This document shows positions 11,078-25,714 of a stretch of 64,000 bases of DNA, piece after piece. The DNA comes from a virus. Lineage: Duplodnaviria > Caudoviricetes. The translations under genes and the position numbers were made by a program. The stretch lies in IMG/VR virus record IMGVR_UViG_3300028805_003982; one strand, given 5' to 3'. The stretch's first letter is position 1, and each line of letters begins with the position of its first letter. The notes beneath the pieces were generated by a model. It searched no databases, was not told the DNA's origin, and saw only the letters and a program-made list of their open reading frames with translations.

Positions 11078-11220
11078 AGGTTTTCCGCAAGACACGGGTA
11101 GTAGAGAAAACTGAGTTGATCCGAAAGATGGAAAGCAATCCATAAAATATTTTTCCTAAAACGACGGTTTTGGGGCCGCGTTTTCAAAATACCGATGTTA
11201 TACTAATGGTATACCAACGT

Positions 11221-11400
11221 CAACGACATTAAGTTAAGGGGTTGAGTAGCTCGACGAGGCGTAAGAGTTGCGGATAAGATGCTCCTAATAATAGCCGGAA
11301 TTGCTGTTTGAACCAGCCTTTGTAAGTTGCATCACTGATAAGCTCCGGCATCGCTGCAAGGTTCGAATCCTTGTCTTGACCCTTTAGCTTAATGACATTG
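11221..11400. mobile_element. 180-bp MITE with the same TIRs as 7907-9009, containing a tRNA-like RNA
   Basis: CAACGACATTAAGTTAAG / TTTAGCTTAATGACATTG ends; flanks ATACCAACGT vs ATACCCACAT (8/10 identical). Confidence 0.7.
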
Positions 11401-11428
11401 ATACCCACATAAAACAGGAGACAATCAG

Positions 11429-12733
11429 GTGAAGAAGAGCCGTTTAAAGAAGGGTTATACGAAAAAGGGTTATGTGTTCAGACTGTACCCTGACGATTCA
11501 CAAAAACATTTCATCAAGCGGTGCTGCAACGCAGCTGCCATTGTGTATAACATAGCTCTTCAAAACGATAAAGAAAAGCGAAAGAAGGCCCGCGAAGAAG
11601 GCGCAAAATACAGGTATAGCGCATTTGATGCGGCTAAAGAGATCAGGGTGCTGAAAGACACTCCTGATGAAAACGGGAACTTCCCTTATGGTTGGTTCAA
11701 CGAATTAGACAGCCGTTTGTTCGGTTTCGCGGCAGCTGATCTTGAATTTGCGTGGGATCGTTATTATGCGAATAAAAAAGAGCACGGATTTGATCGTAAG
11801 CATCCGAATAAATATAAACCCAAATTTAAAGATATTAAGTCTTGTGAAAAATCATACTCGACCAATAGTCATATTAAAATCATTGACGGTCAGTATATCC
11901 AGCTTCCCAAGATGAGTCCGATACGCATGATCATGCATCGTCCGTTGCCTGAGGGGGCTGCCATTACCAAGGTGACAGTATCCATTACTAAGTCCGGAGA
12001 GTATTATGCGTCGATCTCATTAACGCTGCCTGAACAGATCCTGCCTAATGACGGTGGAATGGTCGGTGTTGATGTGGGTATCAAGGAATACTATTGTGAC
12101 AGTAATGGAAACCAAGTCGATAATCCTAAGTTTTTAGCAAAAGCTGATAAGATAATGCGCCGCAGACAGAGAATGCTTTCCCGTAAAGAAAGGCTGCATA
12201 TTATCGGGTACACCTGTAAAAAGGGTGACTTGTCTGATATGGTGCCGAAGCAGGATAAGAAACATAAGTATCCGGTATATGATAGGCCTCTTGAAGAATG
12301 CAGGAACTATCAGAAGGATAAGCAGAAGGTTGCGAAGACACATGCAAAAGTGACCAGACAGCGTGCTTATTTCCAGGATATCGAAAGCCTTAAACTTGCA
12401 AAGGAAAACCAGTTGGTCTGTATGGAACATTTAAGAATACAGAATATGCAGAAGAATCATAAGCTGGCAGGAGCTATCTCAGACGCGGCATGGTACCAGT
12501 TTAAATCCAAGGTGGAATATAAGGTTAAAGAGCATGGCGGAGTACTTGTGTCGATCCCTACTTTTTATCCTTCTTCTCAAACCTGTTCTGAGTGCGGGTA
12601 CCGTAATCCGCTGGTTAAGAACCTGAGTGTTCGTAAATGGACATGTCCTACGTGCGGTACAAAGCACGATCGCGACATAAACGCCGGGAAGAATATCCTG
12701 GCAAAGGGTTTGGAAATGCTTGAGGGCGCGTAA
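11429..12733 (+). CDS. tnpB: TnpB/Cas12f-like RNA-guided nuclease, CRISPR-associated
   Basis: FRLYP start, RuvC-I GVDVG, RuvC-II CMEHL, Zn finger CSECG/CPTCG, RuvC-III HDRDINA; D-E-D triad intact; AGGAG RBS before GTG. Confidence 0.92.
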   Translation: MKKSRLKKGYTKKGYVFRLYPDDSQKHFIKRCCNAAAIVYNIALQNDKEKRKKAREEGAKYRYSAFDAAKEIRVLKDTPDENGNFPYGWFNELDSRLFGFAAADLEFAWDRYYANKKEHGFDRKHPNKYKPKFKDIKSCEKSYSTNSHIKIIDGQYIQLPKMSPIRMIMHRPLPEGAAITKVTVSITKSGEYYASISLTLPEQILPNDGGMVGVDVGIKEYYCDSNGNQVDNPKFLAKADKIMRRRQRMLSRKERLHIIGYTCKKGDLSDMVPKQDKKHKYPVYDRPLEECRNYQKDKQKVAKTHAKVTRQRAYFQDIESLKLAKENQLVCMEHLRIQNMQKNHKLAGAISDAAWYQFKSKVEYKVKEHGGVLVSIPTFYPSSQTCSECGYRNPLVKNLSVRKWTCPTCGTKHDRDINAGKNILAKGLEMLEGA

Positions 12734-12778
12734 CCCGGGCATTTATCACAAACCATTGAAACTTGAAAATCAAATAAC

Positions 12779-12937
12779 AGTGTAGGGAGGTTGGCCCCCG
12801 AACACTATAAAAGAACTCAAACCTTAACGGTTTGAAAAACGCTTGCGGAGACTCTAACATTGTAGCCGTACACCAAGGGCAGTGCCCGTACGGAGCGAGG
12901 TAGTCGATGAAACAAGAATCTATGTGTAAATAATTGA
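12779..12937 (+). ncRNA. omegaRNA/tracrRNA-like scaffold, copy 1
   Basis: Immediately 3' of tnpB; ACGCTTGCGGAG...TCGATGAAACAAGAATC resembles TnpB omegaRNA; paralogous to 13086-13226 with compensatory changes. Confidence 0.75.
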
Positions 12938-12938
12938 C

Positions 12939-13039
12939 GGTTCAGACCTATTTGGTTTTGCACAGTTGTCAAACAAACGCGAGGTAAATCTTAAGTTCTT
13001 TAGGGTTCAGACCTGTTTGGTTTTGTAAAGTTGTCGAAC
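12939..13039 (+). CRISPR. mini array A: 2 repeats (GGTTCAGACCTRTTTGGTTTTGYAMAGTTGTCRAAC), 1 spacer of 29 nt
   Basis: Repeats at 12939-12974 and 13004-13039; first repeat 26/36 identical to array B repeat with the same GTTGTCAAAC end. Confidence 0.7.
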
Positions 13040-13085
13040 AAACCACTGTTAATAAAATACGAAACTTGATAATTGAATAACGATC

Positions 13086-13226
13086 AGAGTAGGGAGGTTG
13101 GCCCCCGAACTCTTTAAAAGAAAACGCCTGCAGAGATTCTAACATTGCAGCTATACATCATGGACTTTGTCTGTATAGAGCGAGGTAGTCGATGAAGCAG
13201 GAATCAAGTGTAAACCAAACCGTTGA
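13086..13226 (+). ncRNA. omegaRNA/tracrRNA-like scaffold, copy 2
   Basis: Second copy; 3' AGTGTAAA is complementary to TTTACACT in the array B repeat. Confidence 0.75.
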
Positions 13227-13227
13227 G

Positions 13228-13461
13228 GTTTGAGAACATCATGTTTTTACACTGTTGTCAAACAGAGTGATTGCGTTCTTGATTTCTTCAGCAGTTTGAG
13301 AACATCATGTTTTTACACTGTTGTCAAACCTCTCCTGAACTTCGCGTGTCTCGGCCTGAGTTTGAGAACATCATGTTTTTACACTGTTGTCAAACCTGTG
13401 CCGCTTACCGCCCAGCCAGCAAGTTGTTTGAGAACATTATGTTTTTACACTGTTATCAAAC
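13228..13461 (+). CRISPR. array B: 4 x 36-nt repeats GTTTGAGAACATCATGTTTTTACACTGTTGTCAAAC, 3 x 30-nt spacers
   Basis: Repeats at 13228, 13294, 13360, 13426 (last has 2 mismatches); unique spacers 13264-13293, 13330-13359, 13396-13425. Confidence 0.95.
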
Positions 13462-13533
13462 AAACCGTGTTATAATAATTAAGTAGGTAACCAACAAGGA
13501 TACCTACAAAAGAACCTTGATAATTATCATATA

Positions 13534-13707
13534 TCCTCCGCGCTAGTGCATTGTTTATGCTTAAACTCAGTTTGTTAGACTGTATTATCCCCTTTCAATT
13601 CTATTGCAAAGCGTTTATTACTAATATCATAGTGGTTTACATTGTTTTGTATTTAATTGATCTATCTTGCGTAAACAAGCCCGGTGCGATTCCGGGGCGG
13701 AGGACCA
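13534..13707 (+). ncRNA. tRNA-like RNA with tmRNA-type topology
   Basis: CCTCCGC/GCGGAGG acceptor plus ACCA, T-arm CCCGG-TGCGATT-CCGGG, TTGTTTATGC/GCGTAAACAA helix enclosing about 110 AT-rich nt. Confidence 0.55.
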
Positions 13708-13894
13708 TTGGGGTTACAGCTCTTGCCATAAGTTGTAAGTCTCCAGTTTTATGTTGTTGTTGTGTAATTCTTTAGTTTCTTTTTACGATCCTCTTGCCAT
13801 GGGATTGTGCCTTCTAAATAATAGGGAATACCGCCTAAAGGATTATTACGTAACCAATCGTACCCTTTGCGCCGGGGATAGAGGCGTTTTGATA

Positions 13895-13969
13895 CGCAGG
13901 GATGTGCAGCGGATGCATAACGGGCCCATAACCCGAAGGCGGCAGGTTCGACTCCTGCTCCTGCAACCA
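13895..13969 (+). tRNA. tRNA-iMet(CAT)
   Basis: C1:A72 mismatch, GGG/CCC anticodon stem, CCA. Confidence 0.8.
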
Positions 13970-13976
13970 GATGCAT

Positions 13977-14052
13977 GGGTCAGAAGGCACAATGGGGTGC
14001 CGCGTGCCTTGCAAGCATGAAATGGCGGGTTCGATTCCCGTGTGATCCACCA
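13977..14052 (+). tRNA. tRNA-Ala(TGC)
   Basis: G3:U70, loop CTTGCAA, CCA. Confidence 0.8.
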
Positions 14053-14182
14053 AGGAAGTGAGGATCAAAGTGTGCAACAAACCGTAAGGGTTTATAGGAA
14101 GGTGGCTTGTCCTTATAGACGTGAGATCTTCCGACTTAGCAGTTCTGATGCCGTTCGCGGCGGTGCACACGCTGCCAAATCC

Positions 14183-14258
14183 ACCCGTATAGCTCAGCCG
14201 GGAGAGCGCCTGCCTTACAAGCAGGATGTCGGGGGTTCGAACCCCTCTGCGGGTACCA
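14183..14258 (+). tRNA. tRNA-Val(TAC)
   Basis: Cloverleaf, loop CTTACAA, CCA. Confidence 0.9.
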
Positions 14259-14448
14259 GATGCATCATACGGAAGGTTTCGTCACCCGTATGTAAAAACC
14301 TGAGGGTAAGGTCCTAAGTGAAACGAAACCGCTTAGGAATAGCGCAGGACAGTTAGCCCAGGTGTGGCCTATTCTCCGCGGAGATATAAAGCCCGTGCTT
14401 ATAGATTCCGCTGCGCATTTAATAATACAGAAATAAGGAGCATTCATT

Positions 14449-14757
14449 ATGTATTGCAAGCAATTCCAAGATATCATCGATTGCATAGGCATTGATGAAC
14501 CCTTTTATGTCATAAACGGAATGTATGAAGCACGTCTTATGGAAACCCGTGAAGGTGATATCCGCCTTGACATGTATGTCGTACTTGAGAAGCAACAAAA
14601 TGAAGTCATATCACGCGTAGTCAACCCATCTGATACATGTGATCTTGATATTGAACCTATGAAGAAAACGCAAAGACGGAGTTATTTCAATCAGTGGAAG
14701 CATCCGAATGAAAGACATGGCTTTTCTGAAGATACTTCTTCAAATATTTCTTTATAA
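14449..14757 (+). CDS. hypothetical protein
   Basis: AAGGAG RBS. Confidence 0.65.
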   Translation: MYCKQFQDIIDCIGIDEPFYVINGMYEARLMETREGDIRLDMYVVLEKQQNEVISRVVNPSDTCDLDIEPMKKTQRRSYFNQWKHPNERHGFSEDTSSNISL

Positions 14758-14812
14758 GTCTTATTCAAACGTCTTTAAGTATTTCCAAAACACATGATAG
14801 GAGAAGACTGAA

Positions 14813-15145
14813 ATGAATGAAGTTTTGAGTTATGATCAGTTAACCGACGAAGCGTTAGATCTGGATTCTTTTGATAACTTTCTGGTTAAGGACAAGAAGC
14901 GTATTGCCAGACGCCGGAAGAACATTACAAAGGCTCTCCGTAAGCGTTCGATCACTCGTCAATATGGTGTTTATGACGGCACTGACTGGTACAACAATCT
15001 GCACCAGTACAGCAAGAATAAGATACATTGTTCCTGCCAGATGTGTGCTTTCAATAACAAGAGGGCTCGTCGTAAGGAGTATACCTTGAGTGACCTCAAA
15101 AAGCTCGAATATGTAAGGTCACAGTTGGACGACTGGGCTTGTTAA
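14813..15145 (+). CDS. basic hypothetical protein with HCSCxxC motif
   Basis: AGGAG RBS; SKNKIHCSCQMC. Confidence 0.7.
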   Translation: MNEVLSYDQLTDEALDLDSFDNFLVKDKKRIARRRKNITKALRKRSITRQYGVYDGTDWYNNLHQYSKNKIHCSCQMCAFNNKRARRKEYTLSDLKKLEYVRSQLDDWAC

Positions 15146-15187
15146 CAAATAACGTTTGGAGAATGCCGCTGTCGGAGGGTTTTAAAC

Positions 15188-15685
15188 ATGAAGAACCGTA
15201 ATGTTAATAAGTACAATCGTGGCCTTCTTTCAGTAAGAAGATTAAAGCCGAATGATGATGCTGTTTGTATGCCGAATGCCAAAACAGATCATCTGAAGAT
15301 GTCCAAACGAAGAAGGGCGCAGCTTGAAAGCCAGAGAAGAAGATTCGGTTTTACTGATACCGAGACTTATGATCTGGATTATACGGCAAGTGTCTGGCTC
15401 TACATGCATCTTAAGATGTTCCTTGACGTCGGCGGGAAGATAGTTAATTTCGAATGGGAAGGGAACTGGTCTGATGAATTAAGAAAAGATCTTAAAGAAG
15501 TCGGTGTTGACGTTGAAAAATATCATAACGACAAACTCGTGTTTGAATACATCTGTACTCTGCTTGAGGAGGCGGACCGCATCTTTTGTAAAAGTTCTTC
15601 TCTTGAAGAAGACGACAAAGGACACAAGCTTCAGACCAAGGCTTTTAAGATCTTTGCGGTTATGATGCCGTACGCGTGGTGGTAA
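15188..15685 (+). CDS. hypothetical protein
   Basis: GGAGG RBS, 165 aa. Confidence 0.7.
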   Translation: MKNRNVNKYNRGLLSVRRLKPNDDAVCMPNAKTDHLKMSKRRRAQLESQRRRFGFTDTETYDLDYTASVWLYMHLKMFLDVGGKIVNFEWEGNWSDELRKDLKEVGVDVEKYHNDKLVFEYICTLLEEADRIFCKSSSLEEDDKGHKLQTKAFKIFAVMMPYAWW

Positions 15686-15686
15686 C

Positions 15687-16433
15687 ATGTCAAAATTATT
15701 TCCCAATTTCAGAAAGCCCCAAATTAAGATTCAAATGCCGGCTATTAACAGCCCTGAACTGAAACTGTTATCCAGGTTTGACCTTCATTTCATTTCGATA
15801 ACCGGGCTTAAGATCTTAGCGATCATCTCGATGCTGACAGACCATATCGGAGTAGCTCTTTTCCCGGATGTGCAGCTTTTAAGGATTATAGGCAGGATCG
15901 CGATGCCCTTATTTGCATTCTGCATTGCCGAAGGGTATATCCATACCCGGAACAAGCTGCATTATCTGGCCAGGCTCTGCATCTTTGCAGCCATAAGCGA
16001 GGTGCCTTATGATCTGATGAACTACGGACATATCGAGTTTGAAAACCAAAATATACTGTTTACTTTTGCCATTGCCGTATTAACCTTGGTAACGTTCGAG
16101 GCTCTTCGTAAAGAGAAGAGGGAAAACAGGATCATCTTTACCTTCCTGGTTTCGTTCCTCGCGTTCGGGATTGGGGGAGAATATCATGTGCTGGCAGTAG
16201 GACTTGTCTTTATATTCTACATGCTCCAAGCATATTCAACTGTCTTCAAAACCTTCGCGGGTATCTTTTATTCCTTTTTCTTTTTTGATTCAAGCATATA
16301 CGGATTTTCGCTGCTGGGCTTTGTGCCGATCCTGTTTTATAACGGTAAAAGAGGGAAGGGGCTGAAATGGTTGTTCTACATTTTTTATCCGGCTCACATG
16401 CTGATCTTATACCTTTTAAGTATCTTCTTTTGA
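15687..16433 (+). CDS. traX: TraX family membrane protein
   Basis: LKILAIISMLTDH, GRIAMPLF, EGYIHTRN, YNGKRG, FYIFYPAH. Confidence 0.85.
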   Translation: MSKLFPNFRKPQIKIQMPAINSPELKLLSRFDLHFISITGLKILAIISMLTDHIGVALFPDVQLLRIIGRIAMPLFAFCIAEGYIHTRNKLHYLARLCIFAAISEVPYDLMNYGHIEFENQNILFTFAIAVLTLVTFEALRKEKRENRIIFTFLVSFLAFGIGGEYHVLAVGLVFIFYMLQAYSTVFKTFAGIFYSFFFFDSSIYGFSLLGFVPILFYNGKRGKGLKWLFYIFYPAHMLILYLLSIFF

Positions 16434-16500
16434 AATTTAGGTAACAAATCTAAATTTTTATGTTATAATGCAATTGATGAAATAGAAAAGGAGAAGATGC

Positions 16501-16578
16501 ATGAGACACTTTGTATCGCAGTCAAGTTCATTGCAGCGCTGTCAAACCGGCAGTTCTGTATTGCCGCGGTCACGGTGA
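16501..16578 (+). CDS. putative attenuator leader peptide 1 (MRHFVSQSSSLQRCQTGSSVLPRSR)
   Basis: TGTTATAAT promoter at 16461, AAGGAG RBS at 16488, 25 codons including 7 Ser and 3 Gln. Confidence 0.8.
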   Translation: MRHFVSQSSSLQRCQTGSSVLPRSR

Positions 16579-16618
16579 TCTTCTCCTTGTCTTCATTACT
16601 GCTTTCTTTTAATGAGTG

Positions 16619-16651
16619 AGGGTCGTCATTGTGATGACCCTTTCAGTTTTT
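16619..16651 (+). terminator. intrinsic terminator of attenuator 1
   Basis: AGGGTCGTCA-ttg-TGATGACCCT followed by a T-rich tract, directly before the first tRNA. Confidence 0.8.
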
Positions 16652-16655
16652 ATAC

Positions 16656-16741
16656 GCCGTGTGTCCGGGATGGTGAGGAGGGCGCCTTGAAAGCGTTTGA
16701 CCGGGAACGGTTTGCAGGTTCGAATCCTGTGCACGGCGCCA
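16656..16741 (+). tRNA. tRNA-Ser(TGA)
   Basis: Loop CTTGAAA, long variable arm, GCCA. Confidence 0.9.
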
Positions 16742-16745
16742 AAAC

Positions 16746-16838
16746 GATCATGTAAGCCTAACTGGTAAGGCACCCGCTTGGAAAGCGGGGAGTAACCGGG
16801 CAACCGGCGTGAAGGTTCAAGTCCTTCCGTGATCGCCA
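16746..16838 (+). tRNA. tRNA-Ser(GGA)
   Basis: Loop TTGGAAA, long variable arm, GCCA. Confidence 0.9.
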
Positions 16839-16842
16839 AAAC

Positions 16843-16931
16843 GGCAGATAAATCCGGACGGCTCCGGACCCTGTTTCGAAAACAGGTGGTACTTAACAAA
16901 GTATGAGGATCGTCACCTCTGTCTGTCGCCA
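16843..16931 (+). tRNA. tRNA-Ser(CGA)
   Basis: Loop TTCGAAA, long variable arm, atypical T-loop, GCCA. Confidence 0.8.
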
Positions 16932-16936
16932 AATAT

Positions 16937-17012
16937 GCCTTCATAGCTCAGCAGGCAGAGCGCATCCATGGTAAGGATGAGGTCGCCGGTTCGATCCCGG
17001 CTGGAGGCTCCA
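16937..17012 (+). tRNA. tRNA-Thr(GGT)
   Basis: Loop ATGGTAA, CCA. Confidence 0.9.
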
Positions 17013-17016
17013 ACAC

Positions 17017-17091
17017 AGGCCGGTGGTATAATCGGTAACACGTCGGACTCTGACTCCGAAGTTCAAGGTTCAAGTCCTTGTCGGCCTGCCA
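17017..17091 (+). tRNA. tRNA-Gln(CTG)
   Basis: Loop CTCTGAC, GCCA. Confidence 0.9.
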
Positions 17092-17096
17092 ATCAT

Positions 17097-17171
17097 GCCG
17101 AGTTAGTCTATCGGATAGAATCCCCGGCTACGAACCGGGGGAGACAGGTTCGACTCCTGTACTCGGTGCCA
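17097..17171 (+). tRNA. tRNA-Arg(ACG)
   Basis: Loop CTACGAA, CCA. Confidence 0.9.
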
Positions 17172-17175
17172 ATAC

Positions 17176-17249
17176 TGTCGTGTGGTGAAGCGGTATCACA
17201 TCTGACTTTGACTCAGAGATCGCAGGTTCGACCCCTGCCACGACAACCA
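17176..17249 (+). tRNA. tRNA-Gln(TTG)
   Basis: Loop CTTTGAC, CCA. Confidence 0.9.
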
Positions 17250-17253
17250 ATAT

Positions 17254-17343
17254 GCGGATGTGGTGTAACAGGTATCACAACGGATTGCTAATCCGTCCTA
17301 CCCATTAAGGGTAGTGCACGTTCGAGTCGTGTCGTCCGCGCCA
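17254..17343 (+). tRNA. tRNA-Ser(GCT)
   Basis: Loop TTGCTAA, long variable arm, GCCA. Confidence 0.9.
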
Positions 17344-17430
17344 TACAGGTCAGAGGGTTCGGGAGCGCCGGGCAACACCTCTGTACAAGGTGCTTTGGGA
17401 AGATTGCCCTTATCTCTGGCCTGTTAATGT

Positions 17431-17504
17431 GCATCCGTGGCAGCGGTCTGCCGTGCGGTCTGCAAAACCGCATAAAGTGAGTTCGACTCTCACCGGATGC
17501 TCCA
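17431..17504 (+). tRNA. tRNA-Cys(GCA)
   Basis: Loop CTGCAAA, U73-CCA. Confidence 0.85.
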
Positions 17505-17575
17505 TTTGTTAATAGTGTTCTATATGTGTTTTTTGCGGTCATAATCTACCTAATCGTATGAATAGGAGGCTGGTT

Positions 17576-18601
17576 ATGAGCGAGTTCAAGAAGATAGATC
17601 TGTTTAAGACTTTTCCTTGGTTAAATCAGGAAGGTACCAGAGATCTGAAGTATAACGATGTTTACACTCTGGACGATAAGGCATACGTTGCTTTTGAAAA
17701 ACGCGGCGATTCAACTAATGCTTTTATGCTTCTCGCGGGGGATAAGAACATTCTCGATGAGATCAATCCCGTTGATGGTGTGGGCGGATGGATCAGAGAC
17801 TGCATTGATGTTCAGGACGAGTTCGAGGATTACGTTGATGAATATGTGGAAGCCAGTGAAATGGATGACCCCAGACCTTATTGGGCAGACCGGGGGGCAC
17901 GTATCGCTGATTTCCTTGGCGACGAGGATTATAAAGAAATTGAAAAGGAGTTCTTTGAGGAGTGGTGCAGAAACCCCGAAAATGCCAGAATGTTTACGAT
18001 CCTGACTTTGGCAGTCGATCCTGACAACGTTAACATGTTCGGTAAGAACGCCGACGGTGAAGTGTGTTTGCTGGACCCCGACAGAAGATTTTATTCCGAG
18101 AACTGGGAAGAAGAGAATCTGACTGAAGCTGATCTGCCCAAGATGCAGAAGATAGTTGAAGAGGTTTTGAAAAAGGGCGTTAAGCAGGTATATCGCGACA
18201 CGGATTCTGAAATTAAAGAGGTCGATTTTACCAAAGGTGAATTAACCGCCTACAACGATTTTGCGATCATCGTTAGCCGTTTGTGTTCTCACGGAAGCAT
18301 GATGGGTTCTGTTATAAGGCCTTTGGAAGACGGCAGGTTTGAAGTAACCGGTTGCCGCGTAGTTAAAATGATAACCAGACAGGATTTCGATACGGATCTT
18401 GAATACGACAAGGCAGTTGATGAAATGATGAAGACTGCCGACGGAGTAACGGGGGAGTTCGTTACCGACGATCTTATCGCTTACGTTGAAGTAAAAGAGT
18501 TCCCCGATTCTTCTTATACGATAGATAAAGTAACCTTTTTTGGTAAGCCTTTGACGTTCCCCGATAATGACGTTGACGGCAACGGCAGGAATATGGACTA
18601 A
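17576..18601 (+). CDS. acidic hypothetical protein
   Basis: AGGAGG RBS; about 341 aa. Confidence 0.75.
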   Translation: MSEFKKIDLFKTFPWLNQEGTRDLKYNDVYTLDDKAYVAFEKRGDSTNAFMLLAGDKNILDEINPVDGVGGWIRDCIDVQDEFEDYVDEYVEASEMDDPRPYWADRGARIADFLGDEDYKEIEKEFFEEWCRNPENARMFTILTLAVDPDNVNMFGKNADGEVCLLDPDRRFYSENWEEENLTEADLPKMQKIVEEVLKKGVKQVYRDTDSEIKEVDFTKGELTAYNDFAIIVSRLCSHGSMMGSVIRPLEDGRFEVTGCRVVKMITRQDFDTDLEYDKAVDEMMKTADGVTGEFVTDDLIAYVEVKEFPDSSYTIDKVTFFGKPLTFPDNDVDGNGRNMD

Positions 18602-18614
18602 AGGAGATCAGACC

Positions 18615-19334
18615 ATGGACGATAAATACTTATACACAGGTAATTGGTACAAAACAGAAGACGGCAAGATCCTTCACATTGCTCAGGATGACTGCCCTCA
18701 AAACCCCCGTGAATGGGACGGGTGGCTTGGTAAGATTTTTTCCGTTTCCCGTTACGTGACAGGTGAAACCGATAAGGAAGGCCTTAAGTGCTGGGACGAT
18801 CTGTTACAGAAATACGGGGTAGAACAGAGCGGTACTGATATGCAGAAGGATTTTCCCGTTGACTGCAGAAATCTCATAGAAGCAGCAAAAGAGAAGGGAG
18901 ACGTTCTCCTTCCTATGTCCATATATGACCACAGCGGAATAACCCTTTATGTCGGTCTTCCCAGCGACCATTTTGACGGGCGTTGGGATTGTTCGTTTGT
19001 AGGTTTCATGATCGCGGACGGCAAGGATCTTGCTGAGCGTAAGCTTTCTTACGATGACGCTGTACAGATTCTTGAAGGCGAAGTAGCCATCTTGGACTGC
19101 TATTATACCGGTTCCGTTTACGGATATATTCTTTATGACGCGGAGTCCTTAGATGAGATCGATTCCTGCTGGGGCTTTTTCGGCAGCGAGATCAAGTCTT
19201 TTGAAGAGAGTGTTGGTCTGAAGATAACAGAAAATCTCGGCAGCGGCTATTCCGACGTCAACGAGTGTTTCGAGAGCAACAGGGAGTCCTTTGAGGAAGA
19301 AGCGAATCTTCGTAATATCAGGGGGTTTGAGTAA
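18615..19334 (+). CDS. phage-type hypothetical protein
   Basis: NPREWD, YDHSG, WDCS, DSCWGFFG motifs; AAGGAG RBS. Confidence 0.75.
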   Translation: MDDKYLYTGNWYKTEDGKILHIAQDDCPQNPREWDGWLGKIFSVSRYVTGETDKEGLKCWDDLLQKYGVEQSGTDMQKDFPVDCRNLIEAAKEKGDVLLPMSIYDHSGITLYVGLPSDHFDGRWDCSFVGFMIADGKDLAERKLSYDDAVQILEGEVAILDCYYTGSVYGYILYDAESLDEIDSCWGFFGSEIKSFEESVGLKITENLGSGYSDVNECFESNRESFEEEANLRNIRGFE

Positions 19335-19963
19335 TGGACGTGATCGACGGCAGATTTGAACCAGTTAAGCGTACTGCCGTGGACGGAAAGACCTGGTGGG
19401 TAGTATATGACAATAAAAGGCATGGTTACAGCTCTTACATTTGCCATGGTAAGTACGAAACCAGGAAACAGTGCGAGCAGGCGATAAAAGCGTCGTATAA
19501 GTATTTTTGCGGTGTCTCCGGGGAAGCCGGCAGATCTGTAGAAAGGAGAGAAAAAATGACAAACTATAATGACCTGAGAGACGGTCAAGAGTTCTATGCT
19601 AATGGTTACAAGAAAGGCTACGAGGACGCAAAGAAAGAGTTTGAAAGTAAGATTATTACAAAGGCTATCAGCGAAGAATTAGAAGCATTACCCAAAGAAA
19701 TTGATGGTGATAAGTTATTGATGCTATCAACGTTTGGGGCAGGAGTTAGATTTAATATCCTTGGTAAATTAAAAGAAAGTAAGAAAGATGACATGTCTCC
19801 TGATGTGATAAGCAAGATCTTAGCAGATTTCATATTGGATGACATTGAGAACGCCGATGAGGATTTTGTTAAAGAAAAGTTTGAAACCTTAGGGGTTACA
19901 CAGGAATTGTTAGATACGTTAGGCGTCGATTACCGCCTGGAAGGGGAAAAACCTAGTCTTTAA
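19334..19963 (+). CDS. hypothetical protein (possibly a fusion)
   Basis: Internal RBS and ATG near 19556; N-terminal domain resembles the C-terminus of 19979..20761. Confidence 0.6.
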   Translation: MDVIDGRFEPVKRTAVDGKTWWVVYDNKRHGYSSYICHGKYETRKQCEQAIKASYKYFCGVSGEAGRSVERREKMTNYNDLRDGQEFYANGYKKGYEDAKKEFESKIITKAISEELEALPKEIDGDKLLMLSTFGAGVRFNILGKLKESKKDDMSPDVISKILADFILDDIENADEDFVKEKFETLGVTQELLDTLGVDYRLEGEKPSL

Positions 19964-19978
19964 GAAGATGGGTGCGAT

Positions 19979-20761
19979 ATGGGGGATAATATGAGCAATC
20001 AAAAATATGTTGCGATACTCTGTAAGAGCAGTGAAAACGACGAAAGCATTGTCCTTGTTTCTTCTGATGAGCTGTTGGAGGTCATTCAAAATCCCGGCAG
20101 CTACAGATACAGTCCATCTAACGGGATAATGTACGGGGATGAAGAGATCAATAAATGCTTTAATCTTAATAAGATCAAAGATTTTGTCCTCATTGATTCT
20201 AACAGTCTTCCGGGCAAGTCCTCCGGATGGCCTAACGTAGTCCCGTCCTGGGCTAAGGTTTCCACTAAGATCAACAATCCTCAGTATATTAAGCTGGATT
20301 CTTTGGCTCCTTACGTCGAGATAGTTGCCATGGACCCGATAGAATTTGACATCAAGTCAATGGAATCGGTTAAGAAGGCAGCCAAACAGGTTATCGATAA
20401 CATTGCTGCTTTAGAGGATACTTGTTCGGAGATTTGTTATAAGTACGATCCTTACGACAACATAGACCCGAATGAATTAAGACGGATCTTATTCGATGAT
20501 ATTGTTCTTGTATCAAACCCCAGATTTGTTCCCATGCAGATAACATCCGAAGACGGATCTTTCTGGTGGCAGATCTACGATGCCAAGAACAGGGAGTTTA
20601 ATCATCTCGGGGGCACCAAGCACTATCCAACAAAAGAAAAATGTCAGGCGGCTATTGATTATTCTCAGGCACACGGGCTCCTGGCAACTGTTGATAAAGA
20701 CATATTTACCTGGGCTCCGAAACAGCCGGAAGAAGTAGATGAACCGGGACACGATCTGTGA
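19979..20761 (+). CDS. hypothetical protein
   Basis: 260-aa ORF. Confidence 0.7.
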   Translation: MGDNMSNQKYVAILCKSSENDESIVLVSSDELLEVIQNPGSYRYSPSNGIMYGDEEINKCFNLNKIKDFVLIDSNSLPGKSSGWPNVVPSWAKVSTKINNPQYIKLDSLAPYVEIVAMDPIEFDIKSMESVKKAAKQVIDNIAALEDTCSEICYKYDPYDNIDPNELRRILFDDIVLVSNPRFVPMQITSEDGSFWWQIYDAKNREFNHLGGTKHYPTKEKCQAAIDYSQAHGLLATVDKDIFTWAPKQPEEVDEPGHDL

Positions 20762-20789
20762 TCATAATAAAAGTAAAGGAGATAATATT

Positions 20790-21485
20790 ATGTACGTTTC
20801 TCAGAATAATCAGAAGTTATACTTAAATCATTGGGGATTTAATGCCTGCAGGCTTATGAGTATGTTGGCTACAGTCATCGAAGCTGCCGGCGGAGTGGTT
20901 GATTACAGATATCAGAAGACAGCGCTTGTCTGCGACAGGACCGTTTATGATAAAGCTCGTGAAAAGCTGGATATGTTAGATCACTTTAAGCAGGTTCTTG
21001 ATAAGAATCCTGAAATGAAAGATCAGATCCAGCCTAAGCTCGAAGTGCTTGAAAAGGAAGCTGAAGAGCTTGCAGGAACACCTGAAGTGTTTGTTCCTTG
21101 TGAGTTCCAGACGCATCTTAAATTCATGATCAACGACACTTTATATTATTATCAGGTTGACGACAATCCTTTTATGGAGTTCTATTATCAGAAGACTCCG
21201 ATCGTTAATGGAAGATACAGTAAAGATGCTTGTCTTATGGAAGCTTCAAAGCTCTGGTACGATGATTCCTTCTTAAAGGGCGGAGTTTCAGATGCAGATA
21301 TCAAGAAGGCAGCTGAAACGCTTGCGGGCGCATTGTTCAATGCACCCGAGTCTGAGATCATCCGCAGCAAGAAAACGATCAGCGTGCCCAACGCACATAA
21401 TAACGGGCATCACAAGGAAGTTGTTTTTGAGCCTGAACGTTTTTCCACGGAGCTGCCGCAGGGAAGAGAGACGCCGTCTTTGTAA
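20790..21485 (+). CDS. hypothetical protein
   Basis: AAGGAG RBS. Confidence 0.7.
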   Translation: MYVSQNNQKLYLNHWGFNACRLMSMLATVIEAAGGVVDYRYQKTALVCDRTVYDKAREKLDMLDHFKQVLDKNPEMKDQIQPKLEVLEKEAEELAGTPEVFVPCEFQTHLKFMINDTLYYYQVDDNPFMEFYYQKTPIVNGRYSKDACLMEASKLWYDDSFLKGGVSDADIKKAAETLAGALFNAPESEIIRSKKTISVPNAHNNGHHKEVVFEPERFSTELPQGRETPSL

Positions 21486-21575
21486 GGCAAAAAACACCTG
21501 TTGAAAAATAAAATTTAGAAAATTACGATTTTTCTGTTGTATTTTTAAAATGTGGTGTTATAATAGTAAGTGATG

Positions 21576-21790
21576 AAGGAAGTGCCTGTCCGACATCTGA
21601 TTACAAAAGACCTAAGGGCTGAAACGGGTCAGGTCCAATCGCCCGGTTAGGTGTGTGAGGGAAGTGAGGTTGGTCGCCGCAAGGTGTAAAGTCCTCCGCA
21701 CTCAAAGTGATGATGAAACATGCATCCGCCTAATCTTTAACCTGAAGGGTCCCCAAGATTGTAATCAGTTGTGAGATAAGGGCTTCCTCT
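21576..21790 (+). ncRNA. rod-shaped structured RNA, 6S-like
   Basis: Promoter TTGTAT-N16-TATAAT at 21537-21564; nested helices GAGGAAG/CTTCCTC, CTGATTACAA/TTGTAATCAG, GGTTAGGTG/CGCCTAATC around a central bubble. Confidence 0.55.
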
Positions 21791-21820
21791 TTTTATACTT
21801 AAACGAAAGGATAAAAGACT

Positions 21821-21979
21821 ATGGTTACTGTTGTTATGAAGAGACATAACGATCTGATGCCCAAGGCGTATGAGAATGATACGCTCGGTTTCGCATGGTC
21901 TTTAGTTCCGGCTATATTCGTACGTACATTGGGTACAGGCAAAGAATATATCGGAAGCAAGGGGCGATTAAGATGTTAA
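21821..21979 (+). CDS. putative attenuator leader peptide 2 (52 aa, codon-diverse)
   Basis: GAAAGGA RBS; MVTVVMKRHNDLMPKAYENDTLGFAWSLVPAIFVRTLGTGKEYIGSKGRLRC; 38 distinct codons. Confidence 0.75.
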   Translation: MVTVVMKRHNDLMPKAYENDTLGFAWSLVPAIFVRTLGTGKEYIGSKGRLRC

Positions 21980-22020
21980 TCACAGCTTTTGTTTAAGCTC
22001 AAACAGAATAGAGAAGCATC

Positions 22021-22060
22021 AAGGATCGCCCGAAGAGAATAAAATCGGACGATCCTTTTT
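22021..22060 (+). terminator. intrinsic terminator of attenuator 2
   Basis: AAGGATCG..CCGA / TCGG..CGATCCTT hairpin plus T tract upstream of the tRNA array. Confidence 0.8.
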
Positions 22061-22103
22061 AATTCTCGTGAACATTGACAACTGAATATTTTCTTTTAAA
22101 CAT

Positions 22104-22177
22104 TCCCCTGTCATTTAAAGGTAGGATGGCTGACTGTTAATCAGTTTATGGAAGTTCGATTCTTCCCGGGGGAGCCA
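22104..22177 (+). tRNA. tRNA-Asn(GTT)
   Basis: Loop CTGTTAA, GCCA. Confidence 0.85.
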
Positions 22178-22181
22178 ATAT

Positions 22182-22256
22182 ATCCGCATGGTGTAATCGG
22201 TAGCACGGCAGTCTCCAAAACTGCTTGTCGGGGTTCGAGTCCTCGTGCGGGTGCCA
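22182..22256 (+). tRNA. tRNA-Trp(CCA)
   Basis: Loop CTCCAAA, GCCA. Confidence 0.9.
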
Positions 22257-22352
22257 TATGAAAAGTAAAAAGGAAAAAGTCAAGGATACATTGTTGACCA
22301 AGGTGAAGTCCGGAATGATCTGAGGAAGAGAATGTAACACCGATAAGTATTC

Positions 22353-22421
22353 TGAGCAATGGTGTAAGCGGAAGCACGCAGAGTGATGGCCGGAAGTGCA
22401 GGTTCAAGTCCCGCTTGCTCA
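22353..22421 (+). pseudogene. tRNA-like element lacking a proper anticodon stem and CCA
   Basis: TGAGCAA/TTGCTCA acceptor, D-arm and GTTCAAGTC T-loop present. Confidence 0.55.
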
Positions 22422-22435
22422 CTTTTCATTCTTAT

Positions 22436-22510
22436 GCCCCTGTGGTGTAACCGGTAACATGACTGACTCTGACTCAGTTATTCAAGGTTCAAATCCTTGC
22501 GGGGGTGCCA
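22436..22510 (+). tRNA. tRNA-Gln(CTG)
   Basis: Loop CTCTGAC, GCCA. Confidence 0.9.
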
Positions 22511-22596
22511 TTAGAAGGTTAGTAAAGAAAACAGGCACTCTTTACGGATCTTCTGCGGGGATGATGAAAAACAGGCACTTTCTTCATCCCTTACAT

Positions 22597-22683
22597 GGGT
22601 CGGTAAACCGTAACTGGTAGCGGGACGGACTGTAAATCCGTTGTCGAGAGACTCTGTAGGTTCAAGTCCTACCCGGCCCACCA
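22597..22683 (+). tRNA. tRNA-Tyr(GTA)
   Basis: Loop CTGTAAA, long variable arm. Confidence 0.9.
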
Positions 22684-22692
22684 TTTTAAAAC

Positions 22693-22768
22693 GGATCGGT
22701 AGCTCAGTCGGTAGAGCGAGGGACTGAAAATCCCTGCGTCACAGGTTCGATTCCTGTCCCTTCCACCA
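22693..22768 (+). tRNA. tRNA-Phe(GAA)
   Basis: Loop CTGAAAA, CCA. Confidence 0.9.
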
Positions 22769-22771
22769 GAT

Positions 22772-22846
22772 GTTCTCCTAGTTCAACGGCAGAACAACGG
22801 ACTCTTAATCCGTGAGATCGGGGTTCAAATCCCCGGGGGAGCACCA
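22772..22846 (+). tRNA. tRNA-Lys(CTT)
   Basis: Loop CTCTTAA, CCA. Confidence 0.9.
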
Positions 22847-22914
22847 TAACCATTAAAGAGAAAGGAGAAGACACATGTTGCACAAACAGAAGTTAAACGT
22901 AGGTGTATTGACAA

Positions 22915-22989
22915 GCGTCTATAGTTTAACGGTAGAACAGCGGACTTTTACTCCGTAAGATGAGGGTTCGAATCCCTCTGGGCGTACCA
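22915..22989 (+). tRNA. tRNA-Lys(TTT)
   Basis: Loop CTTTTAC, CCA. Confidence 0.85.
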
Positions 22990-23062
22990 TATATGGGTCT
23001 GTAGCTCAACCAGGAGAGTTATCTCTAAAGAGTTGCAAAACTCCCGCAGCGCCGTTTTATAA

Positions 23063-23140
23063 CACGCGTTGGAGAAGAGGTCTAACTCGCCGGCCTTTCA
23101 AGTCGGTATTCGCTGGGTTCAAATCCCGCACGCGTGGCCA
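23063..23140 (+). tRNA. tRNA-Glu(TTC)
   Basis: Loop CTTTCAA, GCCA. Confidence 0.85.
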
Positions 23141-23266
23141 AAGAAACTCTAAGTGAAACGAGTAGGTCGTGTCTTGACACTAAGGCGATAACGATGCATC
23201 TGACTAAACTGAAGTGACGAAAGAAGTAACTGAAAAGGAGTCGCTCTCCCTGAGTTTCTGATCTAT

Positions 23267-23340
23267 GGCCCTTTCTTCTATCGGCAGGAAAGCAGGTTCT
23301 CAGCCTGACAAGCAGGGTTCAACTCCCTGAAGGGTCACCA
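23267..23340 (+). tRNA. tRNA-Glu(CTC)
   Basis: Loop TTCTCAG, CCA. Confidence 0.85.
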
Positions 23341-23436
23341 ATGGGCAGCGGTTGTCCGGCGGCATAGAAAGGGTTCAAGTCCTGCACGCGCGGGTTCGAC
23401 TCCCGGCGTACATGGTGTCGAAATGCCGCATTTCAT

Positions 23437-23513
23437 ATCCTCGTGGCGGAACGGGCAGACGCAGACGGTTCAGAGCCGTAAAGTTACAGGTTCAAATCCT
23501 GTCGGGGATACCA
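23437..23513 (+). tRNA. tRNA-Leu(CAG), short variable arm
   Basis: Loop TTCAGAG, ACCA. Confidence 0.8.
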
Positions 23514-23517
23514 AAAT

Positions 23518-23595
23518 GGCCTCGTAGCAGAATCTGGCATATGCACTGCACTAAGGATGCAGGGTTTGCGGGTTCGAATCCCGCCGGGGCTACCA
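23518..23595 (+). tRNA. tRNA-Leu(AAG), short variable arm
   Basis: Loop CTAAGGA, ACCA. Confidence 0.8.
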
Positions 23596-23599
23596 ATAT

Positions 23600-23673
23600 C
23601 CGGGTGTAGCGTAATGGCAGCGTTCGTGCCTTGGGAGCATGAGGTGTGGGTTCAACTCCCGCCACTCGGACCA
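23600..23673 (+). tRNA. tRNA-Pro(TGG)
   Basis: Loop CTTGGGA, ACCA. Confidence 0.9.
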
Positions 23674-23678
23674 TTTAT

Positions 23679-23752
23679 CGTAGCTTCTTCTAATGGTAGG
23701 AAGACCGTCTGATACGCGGTTAATGTCTGTTCGATTCAGTCAGCTACGACCA
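23679..23752 (+). tRNA. tRNA-Ile(GAT)
   Basis: Loop CTGATAC, ACCA. Confidence 0.8.
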
Positions 23753-23829
23753 TGGGGCATAGCTCAACAGGTCAGAGCTCCGGCCTTATAAGCCGGCGGT
23801 TCAGGGTTCGAGTCCCTGTGCCCCTACCA
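23753..23829 (+). tRNA. tRNA-Ile(TAT)
   Basis: Loop CTTATAA, ACCA. Confidence 0.85.
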
Positions 23830-23832
23830 AAT

Positions 23833-23909
23833 GTCTGATTGGCGCAACTGGCAGACGCGGCTGACTCAAAATCAGTTTCTTCAGGGTTCGAGTCCCTGAT
23901 CAGACACCA
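23833..23909 (+). tRNA. tRNA-Leu(CAA), short variable arm
   Basis: Loop CTCAAAA, ACCA. Confidence 0.85.
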
Positions 23910-24074
23910 GTCGGGAGTACACGCGAGAATCACAAGCGGGCCGACGGTACATCGGCAGCCTGAACAGGATTAGGTGCACATGAGTCCTTAAGGGCAACGG
24001 CGGGGTAGTGTCCGTCCTCCCACACCAACGAGTTCTTTGCCTTTTTCTCTCCAAAAGAAATCGGTGACCGGTAT

Positions 24075-24151
24075 GCTTCCGTAGCTCCAATTGGCAGAGC
24101 GGGTGCCTTGTAATCACCAGGTTGTGAGTTCGAGTCTCACCGGAAGCTCCA
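24075..24151 (+). tRNA. tRNA-Thr(TGT)
   Basis: Loop CTTGTAA, CCA. Confidence 0.9.
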
Positions 24152-24155
24152 ACAT

Positions 24156-24230
24156 ACTCCTGTCGTTCAACTGAAAGGACAGCACTCTTCTAAAGTGTCG
24201 ATCAAGGTTTGAGTCCTTGCAGGAGTACCA
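24156..24230 (+). tRNA. tRNA-Arg(TCT)
   Basis: Loop CTTCTAA, CCA. Confidence 0.85.
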
Positions 24231-24355
24231 TTAAAAAACACGATAGCTTGGTAATTTGCTGAAGTTAGCTGCAAGGATAGGATATCGGGTAATCAGCAAA
24301 ACCTTAGTCCGAAAGTAGCAGAGAGGGTTTTTGAAGCCGTGTTTCCCTCATTTAT

Positions 24356-24432
24356 GGGGCCATAGCTCAGTTTGGGAGAGCGCCTGCCCTGCAAGCAGGA
24401 GGTCGCGGGTTCGATGCCCGCTGGTTCCACCA
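24356..24432 (+). tRNA. tRNA-Ala(TGC)
   Basis: GGGGCCA start with G3:U70, loop CCTGCAA. Confidence 0.9.
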
Positions 24433-24578
24433 TTGCAAATTAAGCTGCCGGAATGAACCATTCCTATATCAGCGGTCCTGCTGATGAAACTAAACGATTG
24501 AAAGAACAACCAGGCAGCAGGAATTTCTGCAAAGCCTTTATTTACAAGGCTTTAGCAAAAACCGGGAAGGGAGGGACT

Positions 24579-24668
24579 GTATATAAAAGTATTATTTTGT
24601 ATTGCTTTGTATTGTGATGTACCGATTAAATAATACGTATTTATTTGTATGTCTTTGTATTGCTGTAT
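24579..24668. repeat. 10-bp-phased GTAT repeats
   Basis: GTAY at 24579, 24589, 24599, 24609, 24619 and again at 24637, 24647, 24657. Confidence 0.65.
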
Positions 24669-24720
24669 AGTGTCAAACACAGTTATATATTTACAAAACA
24701 ATACGCGATCTTTGATAAAT

Positions 24721-24797
24721 GCCCGTATAGCTCAGCTGGGATGAGCATCTGCCTTACAAGCAGGAGGCCCAAGGTTCGAACCCTTGTGCGGGCACCA
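24721..24797 (+). tRNA. tRNA-Val(TAC)
   Basis: Loop CTTACAA, CCA. Confidence 0.9.
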
Positions 24798-24802
24798 AAT
24801 AT

Positions 24803-24877
24803 GCAGGTATTGTATAACGGCTATTACGCTACCTTGCCAAGGTAGAGATGAGGGTTCGATTCCCTCTACTTGCTCCA
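24803..24877 (+). tRNA. tRNA-Gly(GCC)
   Basis: Loop TTGCCAA, TCCA. Confidence 0.9.
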
Positions 24878-24882
24878 AATAT

Positions 24883-24969
24883 GGGTGAGTATCCCGTAAC
24901 AGGCAGCGGACCAGACTGTAAATCTGGTGTCATTCGACTCAGGGGGTTCGAGTCCCTCGTCACCCACCA
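24883..24969 (+). tRNA. tRNA-Tyr(GTA)
   Basis: Loop CTGTAAA, long variable arm. Confidence 0.9.
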
Positions 24970-24976
24970 ATCATAC

Positions 24977-25051
24977 GGCCCTATGGTATAACGGCTATTA
25001 TGCCGGACTGTCTATCCGGAGACCGGGGTTCAACTCCCCGTGGGGTCGCCA
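24977..25051 (+). tRNA. tRNA-Asp(GTC)
   Basis: Loop CTGTCTA, GCCA. Confidence 0.9.
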
Positions 25052-25056
25052 ATTAT

Positions 25057-25131
25057 GTGCCATTGGTGTAATCGGCAGCACCTTAGTCTTCCAAACTAAC
25101 GGTACGGGTTCAAGTCCCGTATGGCACTCCA
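25057..25131 (+). tRNA. tRNA-Gly(TCC)
   Basis: Loop CTTCCAA, TCCA. Confidence 0.9.
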
Positions 25132-25135
25132 GTAT

Positions 25136-25210
25136 CGCGGCGTATTTTAATGGTAGAATGCGATCCTCATAAGATCGTCGGTACGGGTTCAAGTCCCGTC
25201 GCCGCCACCA
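25136..25210 (+). tRNA. tRNA-Met(CAT) (Met or Ile2 identity unresolved)
   Basis: Loop CTCATAA, ACCA. Confidence 0.8.
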
Positions 25211-25214
25211 AAAT

Positions 25215-25289: not shown

Positions 25290-25292
25290 AAT

Positions 25293-25366: not shown

Positions 25367-25378
25367 ATTCCTTAACAT

Positions 25379-25710: not shown

Positions 25711-25714
25711 TTAT

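Follow-up and report, generated by a model that had tools for sequence, protein, structure and literature searches.

The 64,000-nucleotide stretch of the virus record IMGVR_UViG_3300028805_003982 (Duplodnaviria; Caudoviricetes) analysed here, hereafter the window, is part of an element of about 235 kb and contains a gene for a TnpB-like nuclease, followed on the same strand by two tandem units (Table 1). Each unit consists of a scaffold resembling the 5' part of an omegaRNA and of a short CRISPR array that directly adjoins it. Repeats are 36 nt and spacers 29-30 nt long, with two repeats and one spacer in array A and four repeats and three spacers in array B. A preliminary description of this DNA, made from the letters of the sequence, had reported this succession of scaffolds and arrays, and repeat searches and reading of the sequence recovered all its parts in place. 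The last repeat is degenerate in both arrays (that of array B, 13426-13461, carries two mismatches), and since it is the distal repeat that degenerates, the leader lies on the scaffold side.

Table 1. Features of the nuclease locus and one further gene of the window.
Feature	Position	Strand	Description	Basis
TnpB-like RNA-guided nuclease gene (probably TranC-type)	11429..12733	+	GTG start, 434 aa	Pfam, PDB phmmer, clade alignment
tracr-like scaffold 1 (5' part of omegaRNA)	12756..12938	+		Alignment, consensus fold, nhmmer
CRISPR mini-array A	12939..13039	+	Repeat 12939-12974, spacer 12975-13003 (29 nt), degenerate repeat 13004-13039	
tracr-like scaffold 2	13059..13227	+		Repeat families, alignment, consensus fold, anti-repeat/repeat B covariation
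CRISPR mini-array B	13228..13461	+	36-nt repeats 13228-13263, 13294-13329, 13360-13395, 13426-13461	
Array B spacers	13264-13293, 13330-13359, 13396-13425	+	30 nt each	Repeat search and sequence reading
UvrD-type helicase	46015-48159	-		Strong matches to PADLOC GajB and DRT helicase models

The 434-aa protein matches the three Pfam domains of IS605-type TnpB proteins (HTH_OrfB_IS605, OrfB_IS605 and Cas12f1-like_TNB). In phmmer searches of the PDB the best solved structure was ISDra2 TnpB (8h1j, E 1.5e-50); LaTranC (9jfo) matched with E 1.3e-40 over the RuvC half only (residues 212-432), Cas12n (9j09) with 7e-14 and Cas12f with 2e-06 or worse. The top PADLOC models were Cas12u4 (4.9e-53) and Cas12f (1.6e-52). 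As described beforehand, the protein has a complete RuvC triad (D215/E333/D416, in the gapless part of the ISDra2 TnpB alignment) and zinc finger (C386, C389, C406 and C409, by the same alignment), and all seven residues (7/7) are invariant across the alignment of its 14-member clade. It differs from ISDra2 TnpB in the absence of the C-terminal tail and in an insertion of about 34 residues (256-289), which is specific to the clade and also missing from a canonical relative of 363 aa. An AlphaFold2 model based on 14 sequences predicts this insertion as a confident beta-hairpin between two long helices; the model is moderate (mean predicted local distance difference test score 71, RuvC core poorly resolved) and was used only for the local shape of the insertion. 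Comparison with the 77%-identical homologue encoded by the syntenic relative L001 gave a proportion of nonsynonymous differences (pN) of 0.135 and of synonymous differences (pS) of 0.75, the synonymous sites being saturated. Such a low pN at saturated pS points clearly to purifying selection on the nuclease.

The preliminary description had proposed a phylogeny as a check, and the TnpB part of it gave a clear outcome. The 14 closest proteins (P0001-P0014), 42-77% identical, form one branch with a long stem and a Shimodaira-Hasegawa-like approximate likelihood ratio test (SH-aLRT) support of 100, and this clade is nested among canonical IS605 TnpBs. Its members measure 398-437 aa, save one of 466 and one of 503 aa. 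Scaffolds followed by arrays of 36-nt repeats with 29-30-nt spacers occur in seven of the eight clade members whose loci were fetched, namely the window, L001, L002, L003-5, L126, L128 and L129/130, the exception being L131. The genomic contexts are varied: L126 is a phage contig with a T4-type capsid gene, L129 and L130 have a context like that of integrative and conjugative elements (ICE) with Tn916-type Xis and Int, and L003-5 and L128 are bacterial. The nuclease family is carried mostly by phages and other mobile elements, and the distribution in the tree suggests that the link with CRISPR arrays was inherited within a single monophyletic clade. At L131 (4246-4860; nuclease P0008), and likewise at L132, the scaffold retains its terminal hairpin, and behind it come two repeats of 22 nt, 53 nt apart, and after these a second, truncated scaffold copy. 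This layout may represent a different or intermediate guide arrangement.

The two scaffolds of the window are 80-92% alike in their conserved blocks. Scaffold 1 aligns with the scaffolds of seven related loci and with an unsplit omegaRNA, and the consensus fold of this nine-locus alignment comprises 25 base pairs. Because 16 of the 25 pairs hold through changes on both sides, the scaffold body can be regarded with confidence as a real structured RNA homologous to omegaRNAs. A nhmmer profile of the scaffold found homologous RNAs directly after tnpB at about 55 canonical loci in Clostridia and Clostridia phages, the TnpB proteins of which are 35-38% identical to the 434-aa nuclease; Rfam yielded no family for the scaffolds, either at gathering level or with E up to 1. 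Scaffold 1 starts with the motif GAAACTTGAAAATC (12758-12771) and contains an extra hairpin at 12816-12836, and scaffold 2 starts with GAAACTTGATAATT (13061-13074). The start motif is conserved, reading GAAACTTGA(A/T)AAT in the window and ACTTTGACAAT in relatives (L003, L126, L129 and L131). It resembles the boxA antitermination boxes of the rRNA type, and the tracr-like RNA may just as well begin with it.

Comparison of the 3' ends indicates where the ancestral guide RNA was divided. In the canonical omegaRNAs the sequence GAAGCAAGAA-TC leads into a hairpin of about 23 nt, then into AGTGTCAA and then into unrelated sequence; by its position AGTGTCAA evidently is the right end of the insertion sequence (IS) and the unrelated flank behind it the guide. 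In the window and its close relatives the alignment to unsplit omegaRNAs holds up to GAA(T/A)(C/T) and is followed by an anti-repeat of 7-9 nt. In unit 1 this succession is GAATC (12916-12920), the anti-repeat TGTGTAAA (12923-12930) and the leader end AATTGAC, and in unit 2 GAATC (13201-13205), the anti-repeat AGTGTAAA (13207-13214) and the leader end CGTTGAG, which adjoins the first repeat. Each anti-repeat faces a segment of its own unit's repeat, TGTGTAAA facing TTTGCACA and AGTGTAAA facing TTTACACT. Across the clade the complement of the anti-repeat, TTTACACN, stands directly before GTNNTCAAAC, and the spacer comes next. In the window, then, an 8-nt anti-repeat takes the place of the terminal hairpin, and the repeat brings the other arm together with GTTGTCAAAC. 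This arrangement (alignment up to GAATC, then an anti-repeat whose complement lies in the repeat) suggests that the omegaRNA terminal hairpin has been turned into an intermolecular duplex and that the repeat end corresponds to the IS right end. The anti-repeat has the same position in all loci with a definable repeat, with imperfect pairing in L002, L126 and L128, and two of its positions covary with the repeat: one is T...A in unit 1 and A...T in unit 2, and the other is C:G in L001, U.G in unit 1 and U:A in unit 2. The preliminary description had read each scaffold as stopping after GAATC, where omegaRNAs continue into the terminal hairpin, and as ending in an 8-nt anti-repeat, and had likened the repeat end to the TCAA right end of IS200/IS605 elements. 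These three readings are borne out by the alignment to unsplit omegaRNAs, by the anti-repeat's place at the split point with its two covarying positions, and by the correspondence between the canonical hairpin followed by AGTGTCAA and the repeat arm followed by GTTGTCAAAC.

The split-guide reading is therefore supported at the level of sequence, and very probably the locus is a system of the TranC (transposon-CRISPR intermediate) type, that is, a TnpB-derived minimal type V-like CRISPR system residing on a large mobile element of ruminant-gut bacteria. In the mechanism proposed, the 434-aa nuclease would bind a guide made of two RNAs. One would be a tracrRNA-like molecule of about 160-185 nt, equivalent to the 5' body of the ancestral omegaRNA. 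The other would be a CRISPR RNA (crRNA) cut from the array and composed of the last ~18 nt of the repeat (the arm TTTACACN and GTNNTCAAAC, the equivalent of the IS right end) plus the downstream spacer. The 8-bp duplex between anti-repeat and repeat would rebuild the terminal hairpin of the omegaRNA, and the complex would cut spacer-matching DNA beside a 5' motif through its RuvC site. Both scaffold-plus-array units, with their matching anti-repeat and repeat changes, would serve the one nuclease. By analogy with related systems, the element most likely uses it against competing phages or plasmids. Sheep-gut contigs from one RNA library are identical to 12606-12756 and 12797-12984, a weak hint at expression of the locus, the parts without cover being uninformative either way.

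This class of system is not new, contrary to what the preliminary description had implied for a split-guide intermediate between TnpB and Cas12. TnpB-CRISPR intermediates whose guide RNA is split form an experimentally characterised class (Jin et al., Cell 2025;188:6283) that arose several times from IS605 and IS607 TnpBs, by a functional split of the right-end RNA into tracrRNA and crRNA; structures of LaTranC are available (PDB 9jfo/9jfq). A TnpB on the way to Cas12 with a split guide RNA is thus already known, and the locus is another natural example of it. In a later preprint (bioRxiv 10.64898/2026.03.27.714800), TranC clades 3, 9, 11 and 20 are characterised, with repeats of 32-38 nt, a median of 4-5 repeats per array, arrays of 'unknown subtype' and no associated adaptation genes. 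Clade 3 is described there as ISDra2-like with an enlarged bridge helix, and a member of clade 9 as phage-borne and TnpB-sized with spacers that target phages. The present locus resembles the TranC systems, as far as these texts describe them, in its compact IS605-type TnpB-like nuclease, its short downstream array with few spacers, its apparently split guide, the absence of adaptation genes nearby and the carriage of some members by phages. The insertion after RuvC-I and the missing ISDra2 tail recall clades 3 and 9, a likeness drawn from the printed descriptions only. LaTranC, in contrast, aligns only over the RuvC half, and the locus therefore does not belong to the LaTranC clade. What appears to be new is the tandem arrangement, in which one nuclease is accompanied by two covarying scaffold-plus-array units, and the presence of array signals that look like those of type II-A systems (leader and repeat ends); neither is mentioned in the parts of the TranC literature compared.

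Other known systems share some of these features and lack others. With ISDra2 TnpB (PDB 8h1j, 8exa) and the canonical Clostridia IS605 TnpBs the nuclease has in common its domain order and catalytic residues, and its scaffold is homologous to their ~55 omegaRNAs; unlike them, it would take its guide from array spacers instead of the transposon flank, with a duplex where they have the terminal hairpin. Also unlike a canonical IS200/IS605 element, the locus has no Y1 tnpA among the window matches listed and occupies a fixed site in a syntenic backbone. Cas12f (type V-F), Cas12n (V-U4) and other Cas12-U proteins are comparable as miniature effectors with a tracrRNA and a downstream array, usually without cas1/cas2, yet the present protein is of TnpB length, lacks the enlarged REC and WED parts of Cas12n and Cas12f, and matches these far more weakly than it matches TnpB. 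Altae-Tran et al. (PNAS 2023) recognised 40 Cas12-U groups and multiple CRISPR associations without adaptation modules in the typical TnpB clade. The split-guide clade and its unsplit omegaRNA ancestors are both at hand for direct comparison, the window offers a natural case of one nuclease with two co-evolving scaffold-plus-array units, and nucleases of 398-437 aa are candidates for compact genome editors.

In contrast to type V-A and V-B loci, no cas1, cas2 or cas4 was found beside the effector among the matches listed for the ORFs of at least 110 aa in the 64 kb and for ten small neighbouring ORFs. Specifically, the 68 window open reading frames (ORFs) of that size include no Cas1, Cas4, Cas9 or Y1 TnpA among the Pfam and PADLOC matches listed, and the ten small ORFs near the locus have no Pfam match, cas2-sized ORFs having been partly screened only. 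The earlier statement that tnpA and cas1/cas2 are missing from the window thus stands for tnpA and cas1, and for cas2 as far as this partial screen reaches. The called genes around the relatives' loci likewise contain no cas1/cas2(/cas4), and the longest ORF of the window, at 733 aa, falls short of Cas9 size.

The arrays are nevertheless of a recognisable kind. Like those of type II-A systems, they have 36-nt repeats that start with GTTTGAGA and end in (A/G)TCAAAC, a leader ending in TTTGAG and the same orientation of repeat to leader. Throughout the clade the 7 nt that precede the first repeat are conserved, whereas the stretch from the anti-repeat to this motif differs in length and sequence. 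The leader ends read TTTTGAG in L001 and L003, ATTTGAC in L129, ACTTGAG in L128, CGTTGAG in array B and AATTGAC in array A. GTTT follows in most loci, giving the junctions TTTTGAG/GTTT (L001, L003), ATTTGAC/GTTT (L129) and CGTTGAG/GTTT (array B), and of the 7 leader positions of the type II-A junction ATTTGAG/GTTT the loci share 4 to 6. For comparison, Van Orden et al. (2017 PeerJ, PMC5382924) found the leader end ATTTGAG in 87 of 167 type II-A loci and a conserved GAG/GTTT junction; type II-A repeats in their account are 36 nt long and run from G to C. The first repeats in the supplement of that paper include 30 FASTA entries with GTTTGAGA and 15 with TCAAAC. The type II-A repeat of Acidaminococcus intestini agrees with that of L129 in 24 of its 36 positions, among them the first 6 and the last 9; the repeats of Filifactor alocis and L128 have their last 10 nt in common; and the Eubacterium yurii repeat agrees with repeat B of the window over its first 10 nt and, overall, in 22 of 36 positions. 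Differences from type II-A loci are equally evident: no cas9, csn2 or cas1 was found in the window, nothing in the 64 kb is complementary to the repeat's 5' half in the way of a Cas9-type tracrRNA, and the spacer used would lie downstream of its repeat, as in type V, not upstream.

These likenesses support the view that the arrays carry signals used by type II-A integrases, for whose adaptation the leader-repeat junction was shown to be required (Wei et al. 2015 NAR). The preliminary description had supposed a type II-style repeat that borrows the host's adaptation machinery, and the TTTGAG/GTTT junction, the repeat length and both repeat ends lend this idea support. New spacers would probably be added in trans, and since leader and repeat ends are type II-A-like, their acquisition by a host type II-A Cas1-Cas2 machinery is plausible; that such a host system does so is put forward tentatively. 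One difficulty for adaptation by such a system is that type II-A adaptation relies on Cas9 to select a 3' protospacer-adjacent motif (PAM), while the motif required by a TnpB-type nuclease lies on the 5' side. A further possibility, somewhat doubtful, is that the arrays are type II-A arrays in a second use, their repeat ends and TTTGAG leader serving as substrate for a host Cas1-Cas2(-Csn2-Cas9) and the last 18 nt of the repeat as the handle of the TnpB; this handle resembles the IS right end (GTGTCAA versus GTAGTCAAAC). If so, the clade would have captured a pre-existing CRISPR array, or converged on one, and would not have built its array by duplicating omegaRNA segments, and the mobile element would arm its own miniature nuclease with spacers gathered by the host's machinery. 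The origin of type V arrays is open between de novo formation from omegaRNA segments and the joining of pre-existing arrays, the latter of which 'cannot be ruled out' (Altae-Tran et al., PNAS 2023), and type II-A-like array signals bear on this question.

The content of the arrays changes between relatives. The window and L001 have no spacers in common. L129 and L130 have identical nuclease and scaffold sequences and share two spacers (L129:4395-4790; L130:4395-4995), and L130 has three additional spacers at the leader end and four between the common ones, including an adjacent duplicate. The arrays thus turn over between strains. An adjacent duplicated spacer is also seen in the L128 array. 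In the window the sequence after each last repeat begins with AAACC, as does the stretch before scaffold 1, a possible clue to the way in which the unit was duplicated. In goat-gut contigs 4 nt are deleted at 13020, within the second repeat of array A, and a goat-gut contig has letters other than those of the window before the last repeat of array B.

A search for the targets of the spacers, as suggested beforehand, yielded no protospacers in the collections examined. Array B with scaffold 2 gave only chance-level matches to GenBank phages and PLSDB plasmids (blastn, word size 11), prefixes of 20-24 nt of all four spacers had no exact match in IMG/VR, the corresponding prefix of spacer B1 had none in JGI metagenomes, and neither the window nor the fetched loci contained a match to any spacer. 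Spacer B1 also had partial matches in two bacterial genomes, within the unrelated genes for GAPDH and MreB, and these were judged to be due to chance. The 3' half of the repeat had one chance match, without an array, in IMG/VR, and nine single matches, again without an array, in JGI metagenomes, against a chance expectation of about seven. A BLAST search with array B against ~800 sampled genomes of two Bacillota classes, with few candidates scored per genome, recovered no similar array.

Between the window and L001 the backbone and flanks are 95-97.6% identical, and the tnpB-scaffold-array cassette is 74.5% identical (window 11401-13378, L001 4973-6605). The most likely cause of such divergence in a nearly identical backbone is that recombination exchanged the cassette at a fixed site; on the right, the breakpoint falls within the trailer end of array B. 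The noncoding stretch 13462-13976 is almost identical to L001 6689-7200, through the first tRNA gene (13895-13969). In L001 there is a single scaffold, and its array is composite, with a type A repeat joined directly to 18 nt of a type B repeat, as would be expected if the second scaffold had been deleted from a two-unit ancestor. On the left side, an insertion of ~180 bp (11219-11400), absent from L001, lies between a conserved upstream region with TGTTATACT and the start of tnpB and includes a tRNA-like T-arm, GGTTCGAATCC. A sheep-gut contig from an RNA library spans 11232-11288 with four differences and unrelated flanks, and other copies of this insertion therefore exist elsewhere. Scans for promoters and terminators gave results near shuffle expectation.

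Several points weigh against the interpretation of the locus as a working TranC-type defence system. The 8-bp AU-rich anti-repeat duplexes are not more stable than those of shuffled tails (6-52% of shuffles as good), and most of the anti-repeat core (TGTG/CACA) is conserved, not covarying, so that the proposed duplex is supported by position and covariation, not by energy. Array A consists of a single spacer and a decaying second repeat, and the insertion at 11219-11400 separates the likely promoter from the nuclease gene. With no protospacer for any spacer, a role in defence is argued by analogy. The contigs from the RNA library could stem from contaminating DNA. The likeness to type II-A arrays was judged by eye from a published list, with no formal model of the background, and with 64 of ~235 kb in view, cas genes elsewhere on the element are possible.

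Some of these points are also those that speak for other explanations. The arrays could be ordinary, orphan type II-A arrays served by a Cas9 and a tracrRNA encoded elsewhere, with the TnpB gene as a mere neighbour, which would suit the repeat length, both repeat ends and the leader end, all of them type II-A-like, and the fact that most of the element and the host genome lie outside the view. Such an explanation would leave a constrained nuclease guideless, given that its scaffold has neither terminal hairpin nor guide of its own unless the array supplies one. Nor would it account for an anti-repeat that stands exactly at the split point and covaries with the repeat, or for an adjacency of nuclease and array inherited across the clade in unrelated genomic contexts, and the window has neither an anti-repeat to the repeat's 5' half nor an ORF of Cas9 size. 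It is accordingly considered quite unlikely, and a variant in which both systems use the arrays is possible. That the locus is a decaying relic, with a nuclease or arrays that no longer work and arrays that are leftovers, might be read from the very short arrays, the one spacer and degenerate second repeat of array A with its 4-nt deletion in goat samples, the insertion between likely promoter and gene and the failure to find spacer targets. The intact ORF with all catalytic residues kept, the strong purifying selection on the nuclease, the compensatory changes that hold the helices of both scaffolds and the presence of the two-unit form in sheep and goat samples alike make this unlikely; also, arrays as short as these are normal in the published TranC systems (median 4-5 repeats).

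Guided silencing, element maintenance or homing, roles of the kind taken by some TnpB and Cas12 derivatives, would agree with the lack of spacer matches in phage or plasmid collections and with the repurposed TnpB relatives described in the literature. The nuclease site, however, is intact, unlike that of known dead repressors, the spacers are diverse and change from strain to strain, a pattern more in keeping with immunity than with a fixed regulatory target, and none of them matches the window itself or the fetched loci. A function outside defence is thus held to be very unlikely, and a TranC-type system probably used in defence is the interpretation retained.

The public sequencing runs that contain the stretch are sheep- and goat-gut metagenomes, and the two-unit form is present in samples from both hosts. 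The element is therefore taken to be a large mobile one of ruminant-gut bacteria, either a huge phage or plasmid- or ICE-like. The genes of the window include those for NrdD, thymidylate synthase, two integrases, a UvrD-type helicase and PcfJ- and TraX-like proteins, with no phage structural genes in the 64 kb. In addition to the helicase (Table 1), one ORF of the window matches the PADLOC Csx1 model (8.5e-30), and the element may carry other defence genes. Also, 43 tRNA genes occupy 13895-27959 on the plus strand, in several tight clusters that represent most anticodon families, an unusual cargo for a mobile element.

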